A DNA stretch of 64,000 nt, taken from NCBI RefSeq assembly GCF_054482595.1, contig NZ_CM137008.1. One strand, given 5' to 3'. Shown here one piece after another: positions 27,751 through 48,625 of this stretch (positions are counted from its first letter, which is position 1; each line of letters opens with the position of its first letter). A model generated the notes under the pieces. That model was not told the origin of the DNA. It saw only the letters and a list, made by a program, of their open reading frames with translations, and ran no database searches. Position numbers and translations under genes: made by a program.

Positions 27751-29046
27751 TCACGCGGTCTGGTTAGGCAGACCAACACCAATTGCCTCTGGTCGTACAG
27801 CACATGCTGAATACCACACAGCAATACGGCACTTACCAGACAGAGTGTTGATATCACCCTGCGTTGCGAAGATGCCGTTAACACCAATGCCAGGAATGCT
27901 GAAGGAAGACGTTTTCATACCAGCAAACAGTTCATGGGTTACCGGGATAGGCTGAGACAGCAGACGGATTGAGTCATCAGCCCAGAACACGTTAGCGGTG
28001 GTCGTTGCCACGTTCAGAACGTTTACCGGAGTGGTATCAGCAAGAGAGGTGTTTACGTTAGCGTAAGCCTTCTCTTCTTTTGTCAGTGACGCGTCATCCA
28101 GTGCAATCGGTTTCGGCGTGATTTCGATGTGAGTACCATCGATCACACGGGTGATTGAGAAAGTCGCATCATCAGTCAGCACGTTCTTCGCCATCTGAGA
28201 CAGGAATTTCACACCAGTGAAACTGATTTTGTCGCCGCGCTTAAATCCGGTGGTGGAGGATACGGTCACCGTTGCAACACGGTTGTCGACGTTCTCTTTG
28301 TTACCATCGGTATCAAGGGTGTATGCCTGCGGCTTAAACTTCTGCGCACCAGAAACAGTTACACCAGTAGCGGTTGACTTGGTAACTGCCGGAAGTTTCG
28401 GTGAGCGAAGAATTTCATCAAAGCCAGCAATCTGACGCTGAATAGTACCGTTGTGATACGCATCTTCAGGAACGCGCCCGAAGATGTCACCATCTACAAG
28501 ATTGCGGCCTGCTTTGCGGTAATCGTCAGGGTTCAGGAAGTAACTGATACCCATGTCGCGGTTGAGTTCGCGGGAGAACATCAGTCGCTCTGCATCAGAC
28601 ACAAAATCCCAGCCAGACAGGCCAGTAGATGGACCAATTGCGCGGGTATCGTGAACAACAAGTGAGCCCATTTCGGTTGCCTGTTTGGCAATTGCTGACT
28701 CAATGTTATTCGCCAGTTTTTTGGCGGATGCCTGGATGCGGCGACGGTAAGAACGCTCATCACGCAGGTCATCTGCACGAAGCTCGAAGAAATCGTTATC
28801 CGGATCGCCCATGTTGCACTTCACGGAGAGTTCCAGAATCCCGGTTGCGTTGCCAGTTAAATCCCAGCCAGTCTGGGTTGGCGCTTCCTGCTCAACAGGC
28901 ATCCACACGGTGTTGCTTGAACGCTGCATGGATTCTGCCGGAGGGGTGTATTTTGTCACTTTGGACGCCATTGGCGTCAGGTTCTGGACGGTTTCGATGA
29001 TTTCATCCAGAGCATACGTGACCAGTTGACCTTCATTTAATGCCAT
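27751..29046 (-). CDS. P22-type major coat protein gp5 (430 aa)
   Basis: [54 protein letters not shown]... parallels P22 coat protein throughout (recalled). Confidence 0.9.
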
Positions 29047-39701: not shown

Positions 39702-40547
39702 TCATGCCGCATCCTCAAAATTAAATCCAAGCTGACATGAAAATGCTTCACATGATTCAGAACACGAACCTGAATCATACTGTCGCATTGATGTCATTCT
39801 TGAGGCTAACTCATCTCTTGATATATCACTAAACAAGGCAATCAGTGATTTAAGTGTATTATTCCCTCGATACATAACCGGTTCCTTTCCTGTTTTTATT
39901 TCTGTATCAAGGATGTTGATAAATGCATCTGCAAGTTCTGGCTCATCCATGGCTGCCAGCGCAACCTTTTGCATACTTTTTTTTATACAGAAAACACAAT
40001 TACCAAGATGCTCCTGTATGCCAAGATCAAACTTCTGCCCACTCCACCAATCAAGCACATCCTGTTTTTCAAAATCGCTTATATCAGCCAGGTACCGAAA
40101 ACCATTAGCCCTTTTAAGCCTGTTTGGTTCATCTGTGCGAATGCCAAGCCATGTGATGTAATTTCCTTTCCCAAACTTTTCCTGACAATATTTGGTGAAT
40201 GGAACAGACTTCATTCTGTCGGTACAGAACGCACCGCCGATATATGGATGTCCGTATTTATTTAACATCCTTTTCCACGGTATAAGATCTGGACCAATAT
40301 CATTGACACCTATCTCTTCATAACTACTGGCCTTCCCCATTTCTGGATTAGGTATTACACGAAGGCAATGTAAGTCTATTTTCCAGTTACTGACGATATT
40401 TCGGATGAACTCATATGTTTTAGGGTGCTCTGCCCCTGTATCCATGAAAACGTAATGCACGTCTTCACCTGACTGTCGCTTTTGCTCCATTAGCCAGAGC
40501 AAATATGCTGACGTCCTGCCACCTGAGAAACTAACGACATTTACCAT
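39702..40547 (-). CDS. PAPS reductase-like protein (NinC/Orf290 family, 281 aa)
   Basis: ORF trimmed to [22 protein letters not shown] (SGGxxS PP-loop-type motif). Confidence 0.7.
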
Positions 40548-41071
40548 GCAGCCCTCCTGACGCCCTGCCCGATCGCCATCAATGCCGCTTTGGATACGGT
40601 AGTAAACATCCGTCGAGGACTGATGAACGGTCGCCAAATCAGCAGCATGGAGCCTTTGCTGTTTCCCTTCTTCTCCAGCCCTGTCGATGGTTCGATAAAA
40701 TTAATCCGTCCATCAGTGATGATGCGAACTTCGTCAATACTCTCCAGAGCCTTGCTGAACCATCCGACAGACATATCCTCTGGCACAAGCATCACTACCG
40801 TCTGTCGCTGTTGTATGCACTGCTCAGCGGCTTTTTCCACCCACGGCCTGATATTGCTGTACGGTGGGTTATTCCAGATTGCACCGTGGCTTATCCACTC
40901 AGAATTTAGCGCGTCGTCGGCCTCAGTTAACCAGTGAGCGCACAGAGCATTTTTGTCGCTCGCTGCCGAATCCAGCCAGAATCCAAACTCAATATCCAGT
41001 GCATCAAAAAGCCAAAGCGGCGTTTGCCAGCAGTCCTTGTCGTGTGCTGGCGTATTTGATTTGATAGTCAT
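40541..41071 (-). CDS. Phage DNA N6-adenine methyltransferase (Dam family, 176 aa)
   Basis: ORF trimmed to MTIKSNTPAHDKDCWQTPLWLFDAL...; catalytic NPPY motif; start overlaps ninB stop (ATGA). Confidence 0.75.
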   Translation of the reverse strand: MTIKSNTPAHDKDCWQTPLWLFDALDIEFGFWLDSAASDKNALCAHWLTEADDALNSEWISHGAIWNNPPYSNIRPWVEKAAEQCIQQRQTVVMLVPEDMSVGWFSKALESIDEVRIITDGRINFIEPSTGLEKKGNSKGSMLLIWRPFISPRRMFTTVSKAALMAIGQGVRRAAW

Positions 41072-41508
41072 GCAGCCCGATCTCCCCATCTCGCTTTCCA
41101 CTCCAGAGCCAGTCTCGCTTCGTCTGACCACTTAACGCCACGCTCTGTACCGAATGCCTGTATAAGCTCTAATAGCTCCGCAAATTCGCCTACACGCATC
41201 CTGCTGGTTGACTGGCCTATTACCACAAAGCCATTCCCGGCAAGGTTAGGAACAACATCCTGCTGCTTTAATGCTGCGGTAAACACACACTTCCAGCTTT
41301 CTGCATCCAGCCAGCGACCATGCCATTCAACCTGACGAGAGACGTCACCAAGGCAAGCCCAAAGCTTTCGATTCTGGTCTAAGCTGCGGTTGCGTTCCTG
41401 AATGGTTACTACGATTGGTTTGGTTGGGTCTGGAAGAATTTGCTGTACCGCGTGAATAGCGTTTTGCTGATGTGCTGGAGATCGAATTTCAAAGGTTAGT
41501 TTTTTCAT
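41068..41508 (-). CDS. ninB: NinB (Orf-family recombination mediator, 146 aa)
   Basis: MKKLTFEIRSPAHQQNAIHAVQQILPDPTKPIVVTIQERNRSLDQNRKLWACLGDVSRQVEWHGRW... matches lambda NinB as recalled. Confidence 0.88.
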   Translation of the reverse strand: MKKLTFEIRSPAHQQNAIHAVQQILPDPTKPIVVTIQERNRSLDQNRKLWACLGDVSRQVEWHGRWLDAESWKCVFTAALKQQDVVPNLAGNGFVVIGQSTSRMRVGEFAELLELIQAFGTERGVKWSDEARLALEWKARWGDRAA

Positions 41509-41584
41509 GACTTCCCTCTCCCCCAAATAAAAAGGCCTGCGATTACCAGCAGGCCTGTTATTAGCTCAGTGATGTAGATGGTCA

Positions 41585-43021
41585 TCAGAATCCTCCTTTC
41601 TTCTTGGACTGCGGTTCCTCGCGTTCACGTCGGCGCATTTCAGCAGACTGTTGGTCTGTGTCATAAATAGCGCCATTTGCCTGAATGCAATACACCGTGC
41701 CGGTATTGCCATGACGATTGAGACGAAGGATTAGTTCGGTTTCACCAGGCGGAACACTGTCATCAAAAGCACCTTCACGATGGATCCCCACCCAATAATC
41801 GCAATCCTGTTCAATCTGCCCTGTATCGCGCGAGTCACTTGGTAATGGGCGTTTATTGGTTCGGCTTTCCAGTGCGCGGTTAAGCTGCGTCAGAAGCACA
41901 ACAACGCAATCAAGCTCTTTGGCAAGGTTCTTCAGTCCTTTGGTGATCATGCCGTAAGCAAGGTCGTTGCGATCGGCCTTCTCAGCGGTCATTAGTGTCA
42001 GGTAATCGACCAGAATCATGCCAACACATCCTTTTTCTCGCTTGATTCGACGGCTTTCGCTGACGATTTGAGCCAGAGATAATCCCGGCGTGTCGTCGAT
42101 GTAAAGCAGGTCGATTTCACTCAAGCGATTGGCTGTTTCGATCGCCCTGTTGAAGTCACCATCGTAATCACCCTGATAGCCGTCATCAGCGTCATTTGTC
42201 GCCGGAAGGTAAAAAATATTCGGGTTAACACCTGACTTCTGTCCCACCAGTTTTTCCAGTATCTGGTCACCTGGCATTTCAAGGCTGAACATCAGAGCGG
42301 GCTTTTTCTCATGCACTGCGCAGTTGATTGCCATCTGGCTGTATAGCGTCGTTTTCCCCATCTTAGGGCGAGCGCCAATGACAAACAGAGAGCCTTTCAC
42401 CAGACCTTTCGGTGACAGCATCCTGTCCAGCGATGGGATCCCTGTGCTCATTCCCCGTTGTTCGCCTGATGGGTCAAATCGCTTCTCAAGGTCGCTAACC
42501 CAGTCTTCCATGACCTCACCAAATGAACGAAGGCCGCGACGCGATCCGGTTTTTGCATGGTCTGTCAGTTGCGTGAAAATCGACTGAATAGCTTCGTACT
42601 TCTGCGTTGCAGTCATTCCGTTGCGGGAATAGAGCAATTCCGTCGCTTCAGTCATGCGGTTGATGGCGTAGCGTTCCATTGCGGTTTCACGAACCTGCAT
42701 TGCATAGGCAACGATGTTTGCGGCGCTTGGCGTGTTCTTTGCGATCTCAGCGATATAAGCAAAACCGCCAACAGACGCCGTTAACGATTTACGCTCCAGT
42801 TCATCGAAAAGCGTCAGGCCATCTACTGGCTTTTGCTCCCGGTGCATTCTGGTTATTTCTTCGAAAAGGATTTTGTGTGGCCGGCTGTAAAATGAGTCAG
42901 GCTTCAGCATCGCCAGAACTTTCTGGACGCGCTCACTGCTGTCATCATCCAGAAGCAATCCACCAATCACCGCCTGCTCTGCCTCGATGCTATGGGGCGG
43001 CGCATAAAAATTATCGGTCAT
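41585..43021 (-). CDS. Replicative DNA helicase, DnaB-type (P22 gene 12-like, 478 aa)
   Basis: ORF trimmed to MTDNFYAPPHSIEAEQAVIGGLLLD (DnaB N-terminal signature); Walker A GARPKMGKT. Confidence 0.88.
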   Translation of the reverse strand: MTDNFYAPPHSIEAEQAVIGGLLLDDDSSERVQKVLAMLKPDSFYSRPHKILFEEITRMHREQKPVDGLTLFDELERKSLTASVGGFAYIAEIAKNTPSAANIVAYAMQVRETAMERYAINRMTEATELLYSRNGMTATQKYEAIQSIFTQLTDHAKTGSRRGLRSFGEVMEDWVSDLEKRFDPSGEQRGMSTGIPSLDRMLSPKGLVKGSLFVIGARPKMGKTTLYSQMAINCAVHEKKPALMFSLEMPGDQILEKLVGQKSGVNPNIFYLPATNDADDGYQGDYDGDFNRAIETANRLSEIDLLYIDDTPGLSLAQIVSESRRIKREKGCVGMILVDYLTLMTAEKADRNDLAYGMITKGLKNLAKELDCVVVLLTQLNRALESRTNKRPLPSDSRDTGQIEQDCDYWVGIHREGAFDDSVPPGETELILRLNRHGNTGTVYCIQANGAIYDTDQQSAEMRRREREEPQSKKKGGF

Positions 43022-43901
43022 CGTGTTCACCCTCACGAACTTTCAGGTAGGTATTGTCGTTAAGCAGGAAATCAAATCCCTTTTTGTGCCAGACGGTTCC
43101 GCGTTGATGGTTTGGACGCTCTTCGAACATCCATCGGCAATTTTCGCCTACGTAGCTCAAATAATTTCTCCAGTCCTGCATCGTGAACCCATGCCCGTCA
43201 AGCTGGCGGGTTATCACTCCGGCTTTGCGCCAGAACGTTCGGATCTGGTTTTTACGCTTGTCATTCAGTGCGCGGATTCTTGGCGCTTCAGGAAGGATTT
43301 CGTGGTAAGCATCGACAACATCCTGACAGCTGACGGAAGGTTTTTTCTTGTCAGACTTTTTGTCTGCTGTGGCACTCTCTAATACGTCAGTATTAGAGAT
43401 ATTATTTATATTATTGTTTATGGACAACCGTTGGACAACCGTTGGACAATCTCCGCTGAGAGCCGCACCATTACTGGTGTTTGCGTTGGACAACTGTTGG
43501 ACAACCGTTGGACAATTTTTTGCCTGAAAATCGTCATATTTAACGATTGTAAACAGGCTAAATTTCTTCCCCATCGAGCAAATATTAAGCATACCTTTCG
43601 ACTCAAAAGTCCGTAATAAGCTCCGAACTTTGTTGTCGGGGATGAATGTTTCTCTGACCAGCGACGGGCGTCCAGTTATCATCTGACCGCGATCAACAGT
43701 TATCGGACCGATATCCGTATTGACGACAGTAGATTCGTGATTAGCCTTGAGGATTAAGTGAAGCCAAAGATGTACTGCCTGAGAGTCCTTATAGAGCCTG
43801 CTGTCCATAAACTGGCGGTGTATAGAGACATACCCCATACTGGATGCCTCCTGATGTTGTACAGGGTTATGCCTGTAATCAGCTAACTTAACGACGCCCA
43901 T
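43011..43901 (-). CDS. O: Replication initiator O-type protein (296 aa)
   Basis: AGGAG RBS before ATG at 43901; gene contains iterons encoding repeated CPTVVQQLSN/CPTVVQRLS segments. Confidence 0.75.
   Translation of the reverse strand: MGVVKLADYRHNPVQHQEASSMGYVSIHRQFMDSRLYKDSQAVHLWLHLILKANHESTVVNTDIGPITVDRGQMITGRPSLVRETFIPDNKVRSLLRTFESKGMLNICSMGKKFSLFTIVKYDDFQAKNCPTVVQQLSNANTSNGAALSGDCPTVVQRLSINNNINNISNTDVLESATADKKSDKKKPSVSCQDVVDAYHEILPEAPRIRALNDKRKNQIRTFWRKAGVITRQLDGHGFTMQDWRNYLSYVGENCRWMFEERPNHQRGTVWHKKGFDFLLNDNTYLKVREGEHDDR
43419..43527. repeat. Phage origin of replication iterons inside O gene
   Basis: Six copies of CCGTTGGACAA-type units in two clusters (43423..43455 and 43484..43516) followed by an AT-rich stretch. 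Confidence 0.8.
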
Positions 43902-44083
43902 GTTTCACTCCTGCTTTGGCTAGTCTGTAAACACCAACAAGGCGCTCTGCGAACGCCCTGTTATTTGCTGCGGCTACCACTAATCCCTCAGGTGAATCAG
44001 GGTGTCGAATCTCTTCTTTTTCCTGGTATTTCTTACGACGTTTTGTCATAATTACTCCTGTGGATTGATCCAGTCTTTCTACA

Positions 44084-44362
44084 TCAGGCCTCGAAGAATT
44101 CGCCGTTCTTCGGGGCTTTTTCTTTTGTCAGCATTCTGGCTACTTTCTTAGCCAGTTCCGCCAACTCCTCGTCTTCAACACCCCATTCAAGAACAGCCAG
44201 AAGCATTCCCATTTTTGGGATGAAGCTGTCTTTCCATCGCGAAATTTGCGATTCATTAATCCCTAATGCATCAGCAACCTTTCGCTGACCACGTACAGCA
44301 ATTCGATTCAGGATGTTGCTTGTAATTGCATTCGCTTTCTTGCGAGTACTTGTAAGTTGCAT
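44084..44362 (-). CDS. cII: CII-type transcriptional activator (92 aa; start chosen downstream of nutR)
   Basis: ...RKVADALGINESQISRWKDSFIPKMGMLLAVLEWGVEDEELAELAKKVARMLT parallels lambda CII HTH and C-terminal region. Confidence 0.75.
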   Translation of the reverse strand: MQLTSTRKKANAITSNILNRIAVRGQRKVADALGINESQISRWKDSFIPKMGMLLAVLEWGVEDEELAELAKKVARMLTKEKAPKNGEFFEA

Positions 44363-44420
44363 ATGTAAGTATTTCCTTAACAAATAAGAAGTTATGCGCA
44401 TCAACTTATGCGCGTTGTAT

Positions 44421-44464
44421 TCCCGCATTTCGGCGGGAATGAGGACCATGACTGTTAAAGAGCG
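44421..44464 (-). promoter_or_regulatory. nutR (boxA + boxB) between cro and cII
   Basis: minus strand boxA CGCTCTTTAACA (44464..44453) then boxB hairpin TCCCGC-CGAAAT-GCGGGA (44438..44421). Confidence 0.7.
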
Positions 44465-44471
44465 GTGTTAC

Positions 44472-44696
44472 TTATGCTGCCTGATTCGGTTTTGGAAACA
44501 GGTGTGGCAAATCGGGGCGAATTTCGTAAGCCTTGATCTGCCCTCCAGTGGCGTTAACGATGGCGGTAACTTTCTCTGGAGAGACCAACCCGCCTTTCAG
44601 CCATTTGTGTACTGCTGGCTGCGTTACACCACACTTGTCGGCAAGACGCTTTTGGCTACCGACAATTTTCAAGGCTCGTTGAATTACTAAATTCAT
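44472..44696 (-). CDS. cro: Cro-type repressor (74 aa)
   Basis: ORF 44472..44717 trimmed to ATG at 44696 (AAGAGG 7 nt upstream); HTH QKRLADKCGVTQPAVHKWLKG. Confidence 0.75.
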   Translation of the reverse strand: MNLVIQRALKIVGSQKRLADKCGVTQPAVHKWLKGGLVSPEKVTAIVNATGGQIKAYEIRPDLPHLFPKPNQAA

Positions 44697-44717
44697 GAGC
44701 ATACCTCTTGTGGTCAT

Positions 44718-44807
44718 TACTTATAACCAAAGATAACTCAAGTTATAAAAATTAGCAATAACCTTTGTTATTTTACTTTGGATAACCGTAGTTATAGATT
44801 TGTGGGT
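44718..44807. promoter_or_regulatory. OR operators with divergent pR/pRM promoters
   Basis: Repeated imperfect palindromes with ATAAC...GTTAT half-sites (ataactcaagttat, aataacctttgttatt, ataaccgtagttat). Confidence 0.6.
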
Positions 44808-45515
44808 ATGAAAACATTCGCAGAAAGACTAAATGCAGCCATGAGCTCAGCAGGGGTATCACAATCACAGCTTGCTGACATGGTTGGAATATCTCAGCCA
44901 GCCATACAGAAGATGTCGTCCGGTAAAACAAACGGATCTCGCAAGATGGTTGAATTAGCCAATGCTTTAAAAGTGCGTCCTGAATGGCTTAGTTCTGGTA
45001 TTGGTGAAATGAGGGATGGTGCACATGAAGAACCATCCAATGTCCGTGAGTCATCTTTAAAAGCTGTGGTATGGGAAGACATTAAAAGAAACGATGACGA
45101 GTTTGTTGCGTTGCCTCTTCTTAACGTTTCGCTTTCAGCTGGAAGCGGTAGCTGCGAGCTAGAGGAATCATCGGAGTTCTCTTTGGTTTTCAGAAAGCAC
45201 TATCTGAAAAAGATGGGAGTATCTGAAAGATCAGCCAAGCTAGTTAGGGTTGTAGGGCAAAGCATGGAACCAACGCTTCACGATGGCGATGTTGTTGGTG
45301 TTAACACGCAAGATACCACAATCAGAGATGGTAAAACCTACGCTATTTGCCAGTCTGATTTGTTACGAGTAAAAACATTAATCGCCACCCCTACATCGGT
45401 GATAATCAGATCAATAAATCGCGAAGAGTACCCGGATGAAGTAATGGATAGAGATGAATTTCATAAAACCGTAAGGATTATTGGCAGAGTATTCTGGTCG
45501 TCTCATAGTTGGTAA
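44808..45515 (+). CDS. cI: CI-type prophage repressor, HTH + S24 LexA-like autopeptidase domain (235 aa)
   Basis: ORF 44778..45515 trimmed to MKTFAERLNAAMSSAGVSQSQLADMVGISQPAIQKM; C-terminal GQSMEPTL with Ser and later Lys of S24 peptidases. Confidence 0.85.
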   Translation: MKTFAERLNAAMSSAGVSQSQLADMVGISQPAIQKMSSGKTNGSRKMVELANALKVRPEWLSSGIGEMRDGAHEEPSNVRESSLKAVVWEDIKRNDDEFVALPLLNVSLSAGSGSCELEESSEFSLVFRKHYLKKMGVSERSAKLVRVVGQSMEPTLHDGDVVGVNTQDTTIRDGKTYAICQSDLLRVKTLIATPTSVIIRSINREEYPDEVMDRDEFHKTVRIIGRVFWSSHSW

Positions 45516-45757
45516 CCGATAATCAGAAGAAGACTTACGGAAGTGCGGAGGGATAATGGAATTTCTGATAGTTTTTGTTGTTGTTTTGGTCATCATTCTT
45601 TTTGTTTTGCTAAGCATTAGCAAAAAGCTATCTCAAATGATTGAACATAGCTCTAATCGCGCAAAATAGACTGGCCCCCTGAATCTCCAGACAACCAATA
45701 TCACTTATTTAAGTGATAGTCTTAATACTAGTTTTTAGACTAGTCATTGGAGAGCAG

Positions 45758-46123
45758 ATGATTGATGTCTTAGGACCGGAGAAACGCAGACGGCGTACTA
45801 CACAGGAAAAGATCGCTATTGTTCAGCAGAGTTTTGAACCGGGAATGACAGTCTCCCTTGTTGCCCGGCAACACGGTGTGGCAGCCAGCCAGTTATTTCT
45901 CTGGCGCAAGCAATACCAGGAGGGAAGTCTTACTGCTGTGGCCGCAGGAGAACAGGTCGTTCCTGCCTCTGAACTTGCTGCCGCCATGAAGCAGATTAAA
46001 GAACTCCAGCGCCTGCTCGGCAAAAAAACGATGGAAAATGAACTCCTTAAAGAAGCCGTTGAATACGGGCGTGCAAAAAAGTGGATAGCGCACGCGCCCT
46101 TATTGCCCGGGGATGGGGAGTAA
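45758..46123 (+). CDS. insC: IS2 transposase OrfA (InsC, 121 aa)
   Basis: [58 protein letters not shown]3-family HTH OrfA. Confidence 0.9.
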
Positions 46124-46986
46124 GCTTAGTCAGCCGTTGTCTCCGGGTGTCGCGTGCGCAGTTGCACGTCATTCTCAGACGAACCGATGACTGGAAAGAT
46201 GGTCGCCGCAGCCGTCACTCAGATGATACGGATGTGCTTCTCCGTATACACCATGTTATCGGAGAGCTGCCCACATATGGTTATCGTCGGGTATGGGCGC
46301 TGCTTCGCAGACAGGCCGAACTTGATGGTATGCCTGCGATCAATGCCAAACGTATTTACCGGATCATGCGCCAGAATGCGCTGTTGCTTGAGCGAAAACC
46401 CGCTGTACCGCCATCGAAACGGGCACATACCGGCAGAGTGGCTGTGAAAGAAAGTAATCAGCGATGGTGCTCTGACGGGTTCGAGTTCCGCTGTGATAAC
46501 GGAGAAAAACTGCGAGTCACGTTCGCGCTGGACTGCTGTGACCGTGAGGCACTGCACTGGGCGGTCACTACGGGCGGCTTCAACAGTGAAACAGTACAGG
46601 ACGTCATGCTGGGAGCGGTGGAACGCCGTTTCGGCAACGAGCTTCCGGCGTCTCCAGTAGAGTGGCTGACGGATAATGGTTCATGCTACCGGGCTAATGA
46701 AACACGGCAGTTTGCCCGGATGTTGGGGCTTGAACCGAAGAACACGGCGGTGCGGAGTCCGGAGAGTAACGGCATAGCAGAGAGCTTCGTGAAAACGATA
46801 AAGCGTGACTACATCAGTGTCATGCCCAAACCAGACGGGTTAACGGCAGCAAAGAACCTTGCAGAGGCATTCGAGCATTATAACGAATGGCATCCGCATA
46901 GTGCACTGGGTTATCGCTCGCCACGGGAATATCTACGGCAGCAAGCCAGTAATGGGTTAAGTGATAACAGGTGTCTGGAAATATAG
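46081..46986 (+). CDS. insD: IS2 transposase OrfB (InsD, 301 aa; expressed as InsCD by frameshift)
   Basis: DDE integrase-type translation overlapping orfA 3' end in a different frame. Confidence 0.9.
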
Positions 46987-47191
46987 GGGCAAATCCACAA
47001 AAGAAGAAGAGCATCTAATTGATATAAAAGAGATTCTATCTGATATAAAAATCACATTAGATGAAATAAAATACACAACAGATCTAATTGAACAGTATAA
47101 AATACCAACCCCAAACGAGAGAAAAGCAATAGATCAATATCGTATTGACTTAGAAATCGACGAAATGCTAAGCAAAAGAAAAGACTAAAAA

Positions 47192-47220
47192 CACCCGGCC
47201 TCAGCGCCGGGTTTTCTTTT
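47192..47220 (+). terminator. Rho-independent terminator after the IS2-split gene
   Basis: cccggcc tcag cgccggg followed by ttttctttt. Confidence 0.7.
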
Positions 47221-47349
47221 CCTGCCGTTCACCACCCAATCACCCATCATCATCATAGACAAGCATCAAGCCAAAGGTAACACCTTCACCCCGCACGCAA
47301 GCCCTCAAACACCAATCAATCAGCAACATTTACAAAAATAAAATACATT

Positions 47350-47426
47350 TGTTATCCATCACTTATAACTTATTTACCACAAAATATAAGTTAGGTTATT
47401 GACCACACCTATAACCTAAGTTATCT
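47350..47426. promoter_or_regulatory. OL operators / pL region
   Basis: Same half-site family as OR (ataagttaggttat, ataacctaagttat) upstream of nutL and N. Confidence 0.55.
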
Positions 47427-47472
47427 TTAAGCCATCAGCAGGACGCTGGTAGCCAAACGGAACAGATTGGCA

Positions 47473-47514
47473 GGCTCTTTAACATTGATGGGATTGTCCC
47501 GCCGAAATGCGGGA
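47473..47514 (+). promoter_or_regulatory. nutL (boxA + boxB)
   Basis: boxA GGCTCTTTAACA (47473..47484) and boxB TCCCGC-CGAAAT-GCGGGA (47497..47514), identical to nutR boxB. Confidence 0.7.
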
Positions 47515-47708
47515 ACCAAAGAGTAGTTGGCTTTGGGATTGGATGAATGAGCAGGCTGATGCTCGACCAATGTATAAACAGCGCTCATGGCAAGCAGTAA
47601 CCAATCTGCGCCTCAAGACAGCGTCACTGGTAGTGCGGGCGCTCTAACCAGTAAGCCGGAATTCAGCACCGGCCATCCAATCACCAAAGTCAATCATCGG
47701 AGGTCAAC

Positions 47709-48008
47709 ATGACAGTAGTCATTACATATCTGGCTGACGATAACGCCAGAAATCGCCGCAGAGCACGCAGACAGACTCAACGTGAACAGGCAATGCAAGA
47801 GCAGCGACTGGCGCGAAAAATTGCGCTAAAGCTCTCTGGTTGCGTCAGAGCAGATAAAGCAGCATCACTCGGAAGCCTTCGCTGCAAGAAGGCAGAAGAA
47901 GTCGAGCGTAAACAGAACCGTATTTACTACCGCAAGCCACGCAGTGAAATGGGTGTGACTTGTGTTGGTCGCCAGAAAATGAAATTAGGCAGCAAACCAC
48001 TTATTTGA
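47709..48008 (+). CDS. N: Antiterminator N (99 aa)
   Basis: Arg-rich N-terminus (NARNRRRARRQTQREQ) and C-terminus RIYYRKPRSEMGVTCVGRQKMKLGSKPLI paralleling lambda N. Confidence 0.8.
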   Translation: MTVVITYLADDNARNRRRARRQTQREQAMQEQRLARKIALKLSGCVRADKAASLGSLRCKKAEEVERKQNRIYYRKPRSEMGVTCVGRQKMKLGSKPLI

Positions 48009-48016
48009 GGTGAGAT

Positions 48017-48439
48017 GTGGAAGAACAAGCAAACAAGATTCTCGTAGAACTACTGCAAAAAGCCAGCAATGGAATAGACGCGGCTGTTTCATTTAGCCAG
48101 GCACAGATTCCTGATGTTGTTCATCAGTTGCTAATATGGAGTTTTGTCCATAGCGCACTTTTCCAAGTGACTGGGTTGTTGCTTTTAATTGCAGCAATGA
48201 AACTTCCTAGTTTTGCAAGAACGGCAAGAAATAATGGCGAGAGATGGACGTCTTTCGATGGATGTCCAAATGATGGATATTTTATATCTTCGTTTTATTA
48301 CGATATATGCACTGTATTTGCTCCTGTATTTGGCCCAATTATTGGCGTTTTAATTATTGCCTTCAATTTCGAATGGTTGAAGATTTGGCTTGCACCTAAG
48401 TTATTCCTAATTGAATATGCAGCGTCATTGGTTAAGTAA
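48017..48439 (+). CDS. Hypothetical membrane protein (140 aa, GTG start) directly after N
   Basis: GAGG 7 nt upstream of GTG 48017; two or three predicted TM helices. Confidence 0.5.
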   Translation: MEEQANKILVELLQKASNGIDAAVSFSQAQIPDVVHQLLIWSFVHSALFQVTGLLLLIAAMKLPSFARTARNNGERWTSFDGCPNDGYFISSFYYDICTVFAPVFGPIIGVLIIAFNFEWLKIWLAPKLFLIEYAASLVK

Positions 48440-48625
48440 TTTCAGGCCGAATATTCGGCCTTTATTTTTAGCATAAACAACAGAGGTGAATATGAACGCA
48501 GTTGAATTTACAAAATGGATGGCAGAGCAAGATATCACAGGAGCCGACGAAAAGGCTGTGTACTACATGGCTATGCTATGGATTCACAAAGCAAAAGAGG
48601 CTGCAAATGCTCTTGGAGGTGAGTG

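Follow-up and report, generated by a model that had tools for sequence, protein, structure and literature searches.

A putative iteron-type replication origin inside the initiator gene of a P22/Sf6-like prophage, and its relation to the origins of phages SPP1 and lambda

Results and discussion

The window analysed here, a stretch of 64,000 nt from contig NZ_CM137008.1 (assembly GCF_054482595.1), contains at 43417–43515 an array of six 11-bp direct repeats (iterons), embedded in the gene of an O-like replication initiator. Together with an adjoining AT-rich tract and a palindrome (Table 1), the array very probably serves a P22/Sf6-like prophage of Lederbergvirus type as its origin of theta replication, and is situated in that part of the initiator gene which codes for the linker between two protein domains. 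One argument for an origin is the place of this gene, as the initiator, in a cro-cII-initiator-helicase module. The following sections demonstrate the anatomy and conservation of the element, the way it co-varies with the protein domains, and the homology of the initiator to G38P of phage SPP1. That an iteron-type origin is embedded in this initiator gene had been proposed in an original prediction from the sequence, and is supported both by the rep_origin annotations of phages Sf6 and HK620 and by comparative tests of function at the DNA level.

Architecture of the iteron array

A repeat search located six copies of an 11-nt direct repeat on the + strand (unit CGTTGGACAAC; TTGTCCAACGG on the gene strand), the starts of which are spaced 11, 11, 44, 11 and 11 nt apart along the window. 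Tandem Repeats Finder (TRF) likewise reported a period of 11 at 43421–43449 and at 43484–43515. The two triplets are offset by 66 bp (6 × 11), and all six units share one 11-bp phase. Five units are full, and the sixth, nearest to the AT-rich tract, retains just TTGTCCA; it ends after CCA, as does the last unit in every homologous origin. The units are repeated in direct orientation and lack dyad symmetry. Five exact copies of the 9-mer GTTGGACAA fall within 86 nt, and the two strands of the 64 kb contain no further copy, against a chance expectation of about 0.5 (128,000 positions / 4^9). Copies with one mismatch outside the array number 9, as compared to about 15 expected from shuffles, and so are at background level. 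The iteron repeats are far above chance, and within the window they are confined to 43417–43515.

The two clusters of three iterons announced in the original prediction are thus present, and its repeat CCGTTGGACAA is the same unit in another register. Its span, 43419–43527, takes in the array and the flanking A6/T6 tract, whereas the array itself has the boundaries given above. The predicted CPTVVQ(Q/R)LS segments are found in the translation of the open reading frame (ORF) at 43011–43901 (–), which across the array reads KNCPTVVQQLSNANTSNGAALSGDCPTVVQRLSINNNINNISNTD, i.e. CPTVVQQLS...CPTVVQRLS. Its caution that the repeats should not be mistaken for clustered regularly interspaced short palindromic repeats (CRISPR) was well placed. 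A CRISPR array was considered and rejected: the units are 11 bp long and abutting, and the ORF that contains them is conserved across some 170 phage loci, whereas CRISPR repeats of about 23–47 bp are separated by unique spacers of comparable length in non-coding DNA.

Conservation and polymorphism of homologous origins

The comparison set of about 170 loci comprised seven annotated homologues and 160 loci from viral contigs. A first scan of the viral contigs yielded near-identical loci, which were used for polymorphism analysis, and a second scan with a reordered alignment yielded divergent lineages. Repeats within the homologous initiator genes, whose absence would have spoken against an origin, were found in all 13 origin types. 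Twelve of these consist of three units, a 33-nt spacer and three units, the last being cut after CCA, followed by an AT tract of 21–24 nt and then by a palindrome with 10-nt arms and a 4-nt centre (10/4/10). Unit number, phase and spacer length are constant across lineages whose proteins are 41–77% identical. The thirteenth type, L088:601–1554 (IMGVR_UViG_2579778784_000007), shows an exact gain of 66 bp, giving three triplets, i.e. nine iterons, and a linker longer by 22 residues. Since this locus is the sole length variant in the set and its gain is exact, the array appears to change by whole 66-bp steps.

The six cores are similar within a genome and different between lineages. The core TGTCCAAC occurs in the window, ST64T and ENT47670, TACCAGCA in HK022, HK620 and the viral-contig locus L153, TGCCAACA in Klebsiella phi13.1 and TGTCCAGCC in the Chronis group, while a Yersinia phage has a mixture; the cores contrasted between lineages include TGTCCAAC, TGTCCAGC, TGCCAAC and TACCAGC. 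CCA is invariant in the cores across the origin types. The peptide encoded by the repeats is wholly different between lineages (CPTVVQ, VPADYQ, VPTECQ, CPADVQ), although the geometry is constant.

Four viral contigs, among them L015, share the origin haplotype of the window exactly. The window copy has A in place of G at one position of the iteron 2 linker, as have other relatives. Among 68 haplotypes of the window's type, none of the 33 third-codon sites in the iteron cores, AT tract and palindrome is polymorphic, versus 44 of 249 in the remainder of the gene (p 0.004); for the cores alone, 0 of 18 third-codon positions vary. Conversely, polymorphism affects 17 of 43 sites in the spacer and 2-nt linkers versus 71 of 747 in the remainder of the gene (p 5.5e-7), a fourfold excess that extends over all codon positions. 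The 33-nt spacer is the most polymorphic part of the gene, with variation at 12 of its 33 sites.

These data bear directly on the possibility that the repeat is kept for the sake of the protein, CPTVVQ(Q/R)LS being a functional duplicated motif (for example a Cys-containing one) and the periodicity of the DNA incidental. The peptide is indeed duplicated, and its P and Q residues are invariant across the homologues; this invariance arises because CCA(A/G) is invariant in the core. Since 11 bp is not a multiple of three, each triplet amounts to 11 codons in which the unit is read in all three frames, the two triplets sharing the same frame. Selection on a peptide cannot maintain an 11-bp period that is read in three frames, and a constraint at the DNA level is needed. 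The segment is moreover predicted to be disordered, the peptide changes between lineages under constant geometry, and invariant third-codon positions in the cores lie next to a spacer that varies at all codon positions, all of which leaves a protein motif with very little probability. The data say that the DNA elements are selected, that the peptide is a tolerated by-product and that the spacer matters by its length only.

The AT-rich tract and the palindrome

An AT-rich stretch following the repeats, as originally predicted, is present with a single G/C in 22 nt. It lies downstream of the iterons in the direction of the gene and hence at lower + strand coordinates. The 40-nt segment 43380–43419 has a GC content of 17.5%, a level attained by just 0.066% of the 40-nt segments in the 64 kb.

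A conserved palindrome, absent from the original prediction, follows the AT tract. Either strand can be folded into a 10-bp hairpin with a predicted single-stranded DNA folding energy of –7.5 kcal/mol (z –6.4), which is true also of five other lineages. When 12 origin types were aligned, 7 of the 10 pairs were found changed on both sides, and 99.2% of the cells of the alignment were still paired. None of 500 shuffles attained the observed percentage of pairing, the covariation score or the count of cells changed on both sides, and control positions obtained by sliding the palindrome gave 27–44% pairing. The alignment thus indicates that pairing has been preserved through compensatory changes. 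A search of 40–48 kb against Rfam gave no family match, so no curated RNA accounts for the palindrome. It could act as a hairpin or as a dimer site, as the sequence fits both.

The initiator protein

The initiator matches PHROG 345, "replication initiation O-like" (E 2.5e-85), and its gene is 98.9–99.3% identical to genes of phages ECP1, HK542, HK629, HK75, IME10 and Sf6. An AlphaFold2 model comprises two domains, residues about 25–125 and 190–296, with a predicted local distance difference test (pLDDT) score >90. The linker 130–177, encoded by the origin DNA, is predicted to be disordered (pLDDT <50 at 130–170).

Searches against Pfam and NCBIfam assigned no family to the initiator and returned one sub-threshold match to DUF7376; a sequence search of the PDB with a profile of the initiator family gave no match. 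Foldseek against the PDB returned weak winged-helix matches for the N-terminal domain (E 0.025–0.1), which we took as a hint. A profile built from 60 family members was aligned by hhalign to the N-domain of SPP1 G38P with a probability of 99.3% (E 2.3e-20, 108 columns). PF09681 (Phage_rep_org_N) was reached by 9 of the 60 members, the initiator of the window itself staying under every Pfam threshold. By these profile comparisons, the N-domains of the window initiator and of SPP1 G38P are homologous. No similarity to lambda O was detectable by BLASTP (E 4.5), by hhalign (probability 1.2%) or as a PF04492 match, and the C-domain gave no match in Pfam, Phg_2220_C included. On the sequence evidence, the name "O gene" fits by position and role alone, not by ancestry.

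Natural domain swaps

Identity matrices were calculated separately for the N-domain (the 100 residues before KYDDFQ) and the C-domain. N-domain clusters coincide exactly with iteron types and C-domain clusters with palindrome types, and the two groupings assort independently. The C-domain of the window is 100% identical to that of HK022, versus 48% for the N-domain; locus L156 and Chronis share 99% in the N-domain and 50% in the C-domain, and L153 and Chronis share 100% in the C-domain and 63% in the N-domain. The junction lies inside the AT tract in all three chimeras. Such a pattern would be expected if the N-domain reads the iterons. Lambda O binds its iterons through its N-terminal 162 residues. 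A stronger argument than the co-segregation of iteron type and N-domain, to which physical linkage would contribute, is that the six cores of any one genome are alike.

Junctions of this kind adjoin the repeats, and one relative (L088) carries a 66-bp duplication, which recalls repeats that arise by recombination or slippage at the boundary of a mosaic module and serve no function. The junctions fall in the AT tract and not in the repeats; the divergent lineages agree in the number, phase and spacer length of the units, and the cores are more constrained than their neighbours. Origin as a functionless scar is the least probable of the explanations considered, and it and the protein-repeat explanation are effectively excluded.

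Proposed mode of action

From the arrangement of the element we infer binding by the initiator, unwinding, recruitment of the helicase and firing of the origin. The N-terminal winged-helix domain would bind the 11-bp repeats in a head-to-tail row, probably with one monomer on each; given the period of 11 bp and the offset of 66 bp between the triplets, all six units would lie on one face of the helix. The nucleoprotein array would strain the DNA and open the adjoining AT-rich tract, and the C-terminal domain would recruit the DnaB-family helicase which the phage itself encodes in the adjacent gene, to be followed by the host primase and polymerase. As no loader gene intervenes, recruitment by the C-domain would be direct. 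The palindrome would belong to the helicase-side half of the origin and might guide helicase entry, as a hairpin or dyad signal, or else limit unwinding. The CPTVVQ(Q/R)LS peptide would be carried along passively. By analogy with lambda, transcription of the operon from PR would traverse the origin and may assist.

Several points weigh against this interpretation. The winged-helix assignment of the N-domain depends on weak Foldseek E-values. The iterons adjoin the coding region of the N-domain and the palindrome that of the C-domain, and their association could in part be due to linkage. No experimental test of this type of origin was found in the open-access literature searched. The 11-bp arrays of SPP1 gene 38, discussed below, are known here as sequence features and not as G38P footprints. 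The plasmid database contained 13 matches to the initiator, the close ones in phage-sized or very large records, and such matches do not demonstrate an autonomous mini-replicon. Finally, binding sites need not initiate: G38P bound at SPP1 oriR, a second binding site, has been proposed to stall replication forks and to trigger the switch from theta to sigma replication (PMC6316719).

The last point leads to the main alternative, in which the iterons bind the initiator mainly for control, by titration or handcuffing, by autoregulation of the operon or as a fork barrier in a switch to rolling-circle replication, and initiation takes place elsewhere. Lambda iterons carried on a plasmid can sequester O and so inhibit replication, and firing is not proven by binding sites alone. 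Nevertheless, the array is the only one of its kind in the 64 kb, it continues directly into an AT-rich tract and a palindrome, in the order of the proven lambda origin, SPP1 gene 38, the site of the proven oriL, contains an 11-bp array followed by an AT-rich array, and no other origin-like element was seen in the replication module. We therefore regard a mainly regulatory array as improbable, and retain the interpretation as a replication origin.

Features and genomic context

The coordinates of the origin and of the neighbouring genes are compiled in Table 1. The DnaB-like helicase of the original prediction is encoded by the next gene, the start of which was set from the annotation of Sf6 gene 44. 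This gene, syntenic with Sf6 gene 44, overlaps the 3' end of the initiator gene, with no loader gene in between. GC skew in a 40-kb temperate phage mostly tracks the direction of transcription.

Table 1. Coordinates of the origin elements and of genes of the replication module (positions in the window).
Feature	Position	Strand	Remarks
Replication initiator gene, 296 aa, O-like	43011–43901	–	Family of Sf6 gene 43, HK022 O and phage L gp18
A6 tract (T6 on the other strand)	43516–43521	–	Directly upstream of first iteron; A/T run here in all homologues
Iteron triplet 1, TTGTCCAACGG TTGTCCAACAG TTGTCCAACGC (gene strand)	43483–43515	–	Units 43505–43515, 43494–43504, 43483–43493
Spacer between triplets, 33 nt	43450–43482	–	Length constant in all 13 origin types, sequence hypervariable
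Iteron triplet 2, TTGTCCAACGG TTGTCCAACGG TTGTCCAtaaa (gene strand)	43417–43449	–	Units 43439–43449, 43428–43438, 43417–43427
AT-rich tract, ATAAACAATAATATAAATAATA (gene strand), presumed DNA-unwinding element	43400–43421	–	1 G/C in 22 nt; recombination junctions of N- and C-modules
Perfect palindrome, TCTCTAATAC-TGAC-GTATTAGAGA	43376–43399		10-bp arms, 4-nt centre; repeat search; after AT tract in gene direction
DnaB-family replicative helicase of the phage	41585–43021	–	Pfam DnaB, DnaB_C; TIGR03600 phage_DnaB, 584 bits versus cut-off 499
53-aa ORF, phrog_1331	43888–44049	–	Homologue of Sf6 gene 42 / HK97 gp53; overlaps initiator start
CII gene	44084–44449	–	Pfam; upstream in same rightward early operon; layout as in Sf6 annotation
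Cro-like gene	44472–44717	–	Pfam; upstream in same rightward early operon; layout as in Sf6 annotation
CI-type repressor gene	44778–45515		Divergent from operon

Judging by eye from the layout of its ORFs, the window looks like it holds a P22-like prophage, and the nearest relatives of the origin region are Lederbergvirus and HK-series phages. A small ORF between cII and the initiator gene is also annotated in Sf6, ST160, HK620, HK022 and the Klebsiella and Yersinia homologues examined. Downstream of the helicase gene, the nin region comprises NinB (41068–41526), a Dam-type N6-adenine methyltransferase (40541–41131) and a PAPS-reductase-like gene (39702–40637); the latter two look like accessory genes of the prophage.

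An IS3-family insertion sequence (IS) with HTH_Tnp_1 and rve ORFs is located at about 45661–47002, bounded by imperfect terminal inverted repeats (45676–45707 and 46958–46989). It is 97–99.8% identical to copies on thousands of enterobacterial plasmids and lies between the CI-type repressor gene and a gene for an N-like antiterminator (47709–48008). The insertion seems to have removed the first ~32 residues of a phrog_18389 gene (46961–47188). It leaves the replication module intact and may affect prophage immunity and the early-left region. When 41000–48500 was searched against complete E. coli genomes in RefSeq, none had at least 80% of the region in one place; the best covered 74% at 98% identity, and the IS element swamped the search. 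Either such an association of immunity region, IS insertion and replication module is uncommon, or the host is a bacterium other than E. coli, perhaps Shigella.

Significance

An origin of this kind is expected in a common family of lambdoid/P22-like prophages, and the element is contained already in GenBank annotation and in a genome paper. Added here are exact coordinates for the iterons, the unwinding element and the palindrome, which also guard the repeats from being misread as a CRISPR array or as a protein repeat. The fitting experimental model for this initiator is SPP1 G38P with oriL, rather than lambda O, and the natural series of domain swaps, pairing iteron type with N-domain and palindrome type with C-domain, offers a ready design for work on specificity. 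The replication module (HK022-type O and P) is also found in Shiga-toxin phages, for example VT2-Sakai, Stx2 phage 86 and Stx1/Stx2 II, the toxin output of which depends on phage replication.

Comparison with known systems

As a putative feature the origin is already known. The rep_origin of the Sf6 GenBank record (28385–28480) maps to 43421–43516 of the window; it is labelled putative, and the record likens the repeat region to the origin of phage lambda and to phage HK620. The HK620 record places a rep_origin at the corresponding position inside its O gene, and the genome paper of phage L describes repeats in gene 18 as the "likely" origin. These are the same element as that of the window, with no difference of substance. 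Phage L and ST64T have TGTCCAACGGA-type repeats in an identical 3 + 3 layout, and HK620 and HK022 combine this layout with another core, TTACCAGCA. The published annotations of Sf6, HK620 and phage L make no mention of the palindrome or of the phasing.

The iterons of plasmids such as RK2, F, P1, R6K and pSC101 are typically 17–22 bp long, and the origin lies outside the reading frame of the initiator. The initiators of these plasmids belong to other families, and that of the window has no match to a plasmid Rep family in Pfam. Plasmid iterons bind monomers, and the direct-repeat arrangement is typical of them (PMC5043065).

G38P of SPP1, an experimentally characterised replisome organizer, binds direct repeats of oriL, which is situated in gene 38 and adjoins an AT-rich unwinding element. 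Acting with G39P and with G40P, a helicase of the DnaB type, G38P supports theta replication in a reconstituted system (PMC6316719). SPP1 oriL and the window thus agree in having the origin in the initiator's own gene, direct repeats joined to an AT-rich element, and a DnaB-family helicase of the phage. In SPP1 gene 38 (L172:2438–2527), an array with an 11-bp period (4.6 copies, 2438–2488) is followed by an AT-rich 9-bp array, right after the region coding for the N-domain. Two distant relatives show the SPP1 arrangement, L174 (at 750–856) with AACCAGCAACT in 5.9 copies and L175 (at 736–824) with GTGAACAACAG in 4.6 copies. The AT-rich arrays of 9-bp period in SPP1, L174 and L175 (AACAATGAT, AAGAACTTA and AATAAGGTT, respectively; 3.6–4.6 copies) adjoin the 11-bp arrays, and the AT tract of the window contains a weak two-copy echo of such an array (AACAATAAT / ATAAATAAT). 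The systems differ in that a distinct loader, G39P, stands between initiator and helicase in SPP1, whereas in the window the helicase gene overlaps the initiator gene directly. The C-domain of G38P (Phg_2220_C) is unrelated to that of the window initiator, the SPP1 repeats are contiguous and not divided into 3 + 33 bp + 3, and SPP1 also has oriR.

The initiator family extends to 8,747 cluster representatives at E <= 0.001. Among the best 150 of these, 63 contain an exact 5-residue repeat, in most cases just after the N-domain and with a spacing of 11 or 22 residues. These repeats are the shadow, at the protein level, of such iteron arrays, and it is probable that linker-embedded origins could be predicted across this family from protein sequence alone.

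The resemblance to lambda ori that was part of the original prediction stands for the gene-embedded layout, and not for the initiator or the iterons. Both phages have their origin halfway along the initiator gene, where it separates the coding regions of an origin-specific N-domain and a partner-specific C-domain, and the initiator gene belongs to the PR operon behind cro and cII. In lambda ori (NC_001416), four dyad iterons of 18 bp precede an AT-rich tract, which is followed by a 12/4/12 palindrome, GTCAGAGAATTC-TGGC-GAATCCTCTGAC; the window has the same order of iterons, AT-rich tract and palindrome with a 4-nt centre, the latter being of the 10/4/10 form. In contrast to the six 11-bp direct repeats without dyad symmetry, the four lambda iterons are dyad-symmetric units of 18–19 bp which bind O dimers. 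Lambda P captures the host DnaB, whereas the phage of the window encodes its own DnaB-family helicase. No experimental account of the role of the lambda palindrome was found in the open-access literature searched.

A chimeric initiator occurs in a Logan contig (SRR29694067; L173:1840–1995). It has a lambda-O-type N-domain (PF04492) and four dyad iterons of the lambda type, together with a C-domain 59% identical to that of the window and a DnaB-family helicase encoded next. After its AT tract follows a 12/4/12 palindrome, 83% complementary, with the TGAC centre found in the window.

Since palindromes recur in lambda and in L173 and show compensatory changes, dyad symmetry is a general, selected part of such origins. 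A wider proposal, which we put forward tentatively and consider rather unlikely, is that of a two-part origin, in which the iterons match the N-domain, and the palindrome, far from being a passive neighbour, is a loading or entry signal matched to the C-domain and the DnaB-type helicase. The pairing of palindrome and C-domain is suggested because the palindrome travels with the C-domain and the helicase module, undergoes compensatory changes, and in L173, which has a C-domain of the window's type, stands beside lambda-type iterons. The same proposal holds that an 11-bp array joined to an AT array is ancestral to a G38P-type superfamily spanning phages of Gram-positive and Gram-negative hosts; if that signature is truly ancestral, origins across the superfamily would become predictable from protein sequence alone. 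Taken together, the comparisons support an origin which is lambda-like in its layout and SPP1-G38P-like in its ancestry and type of iteron.

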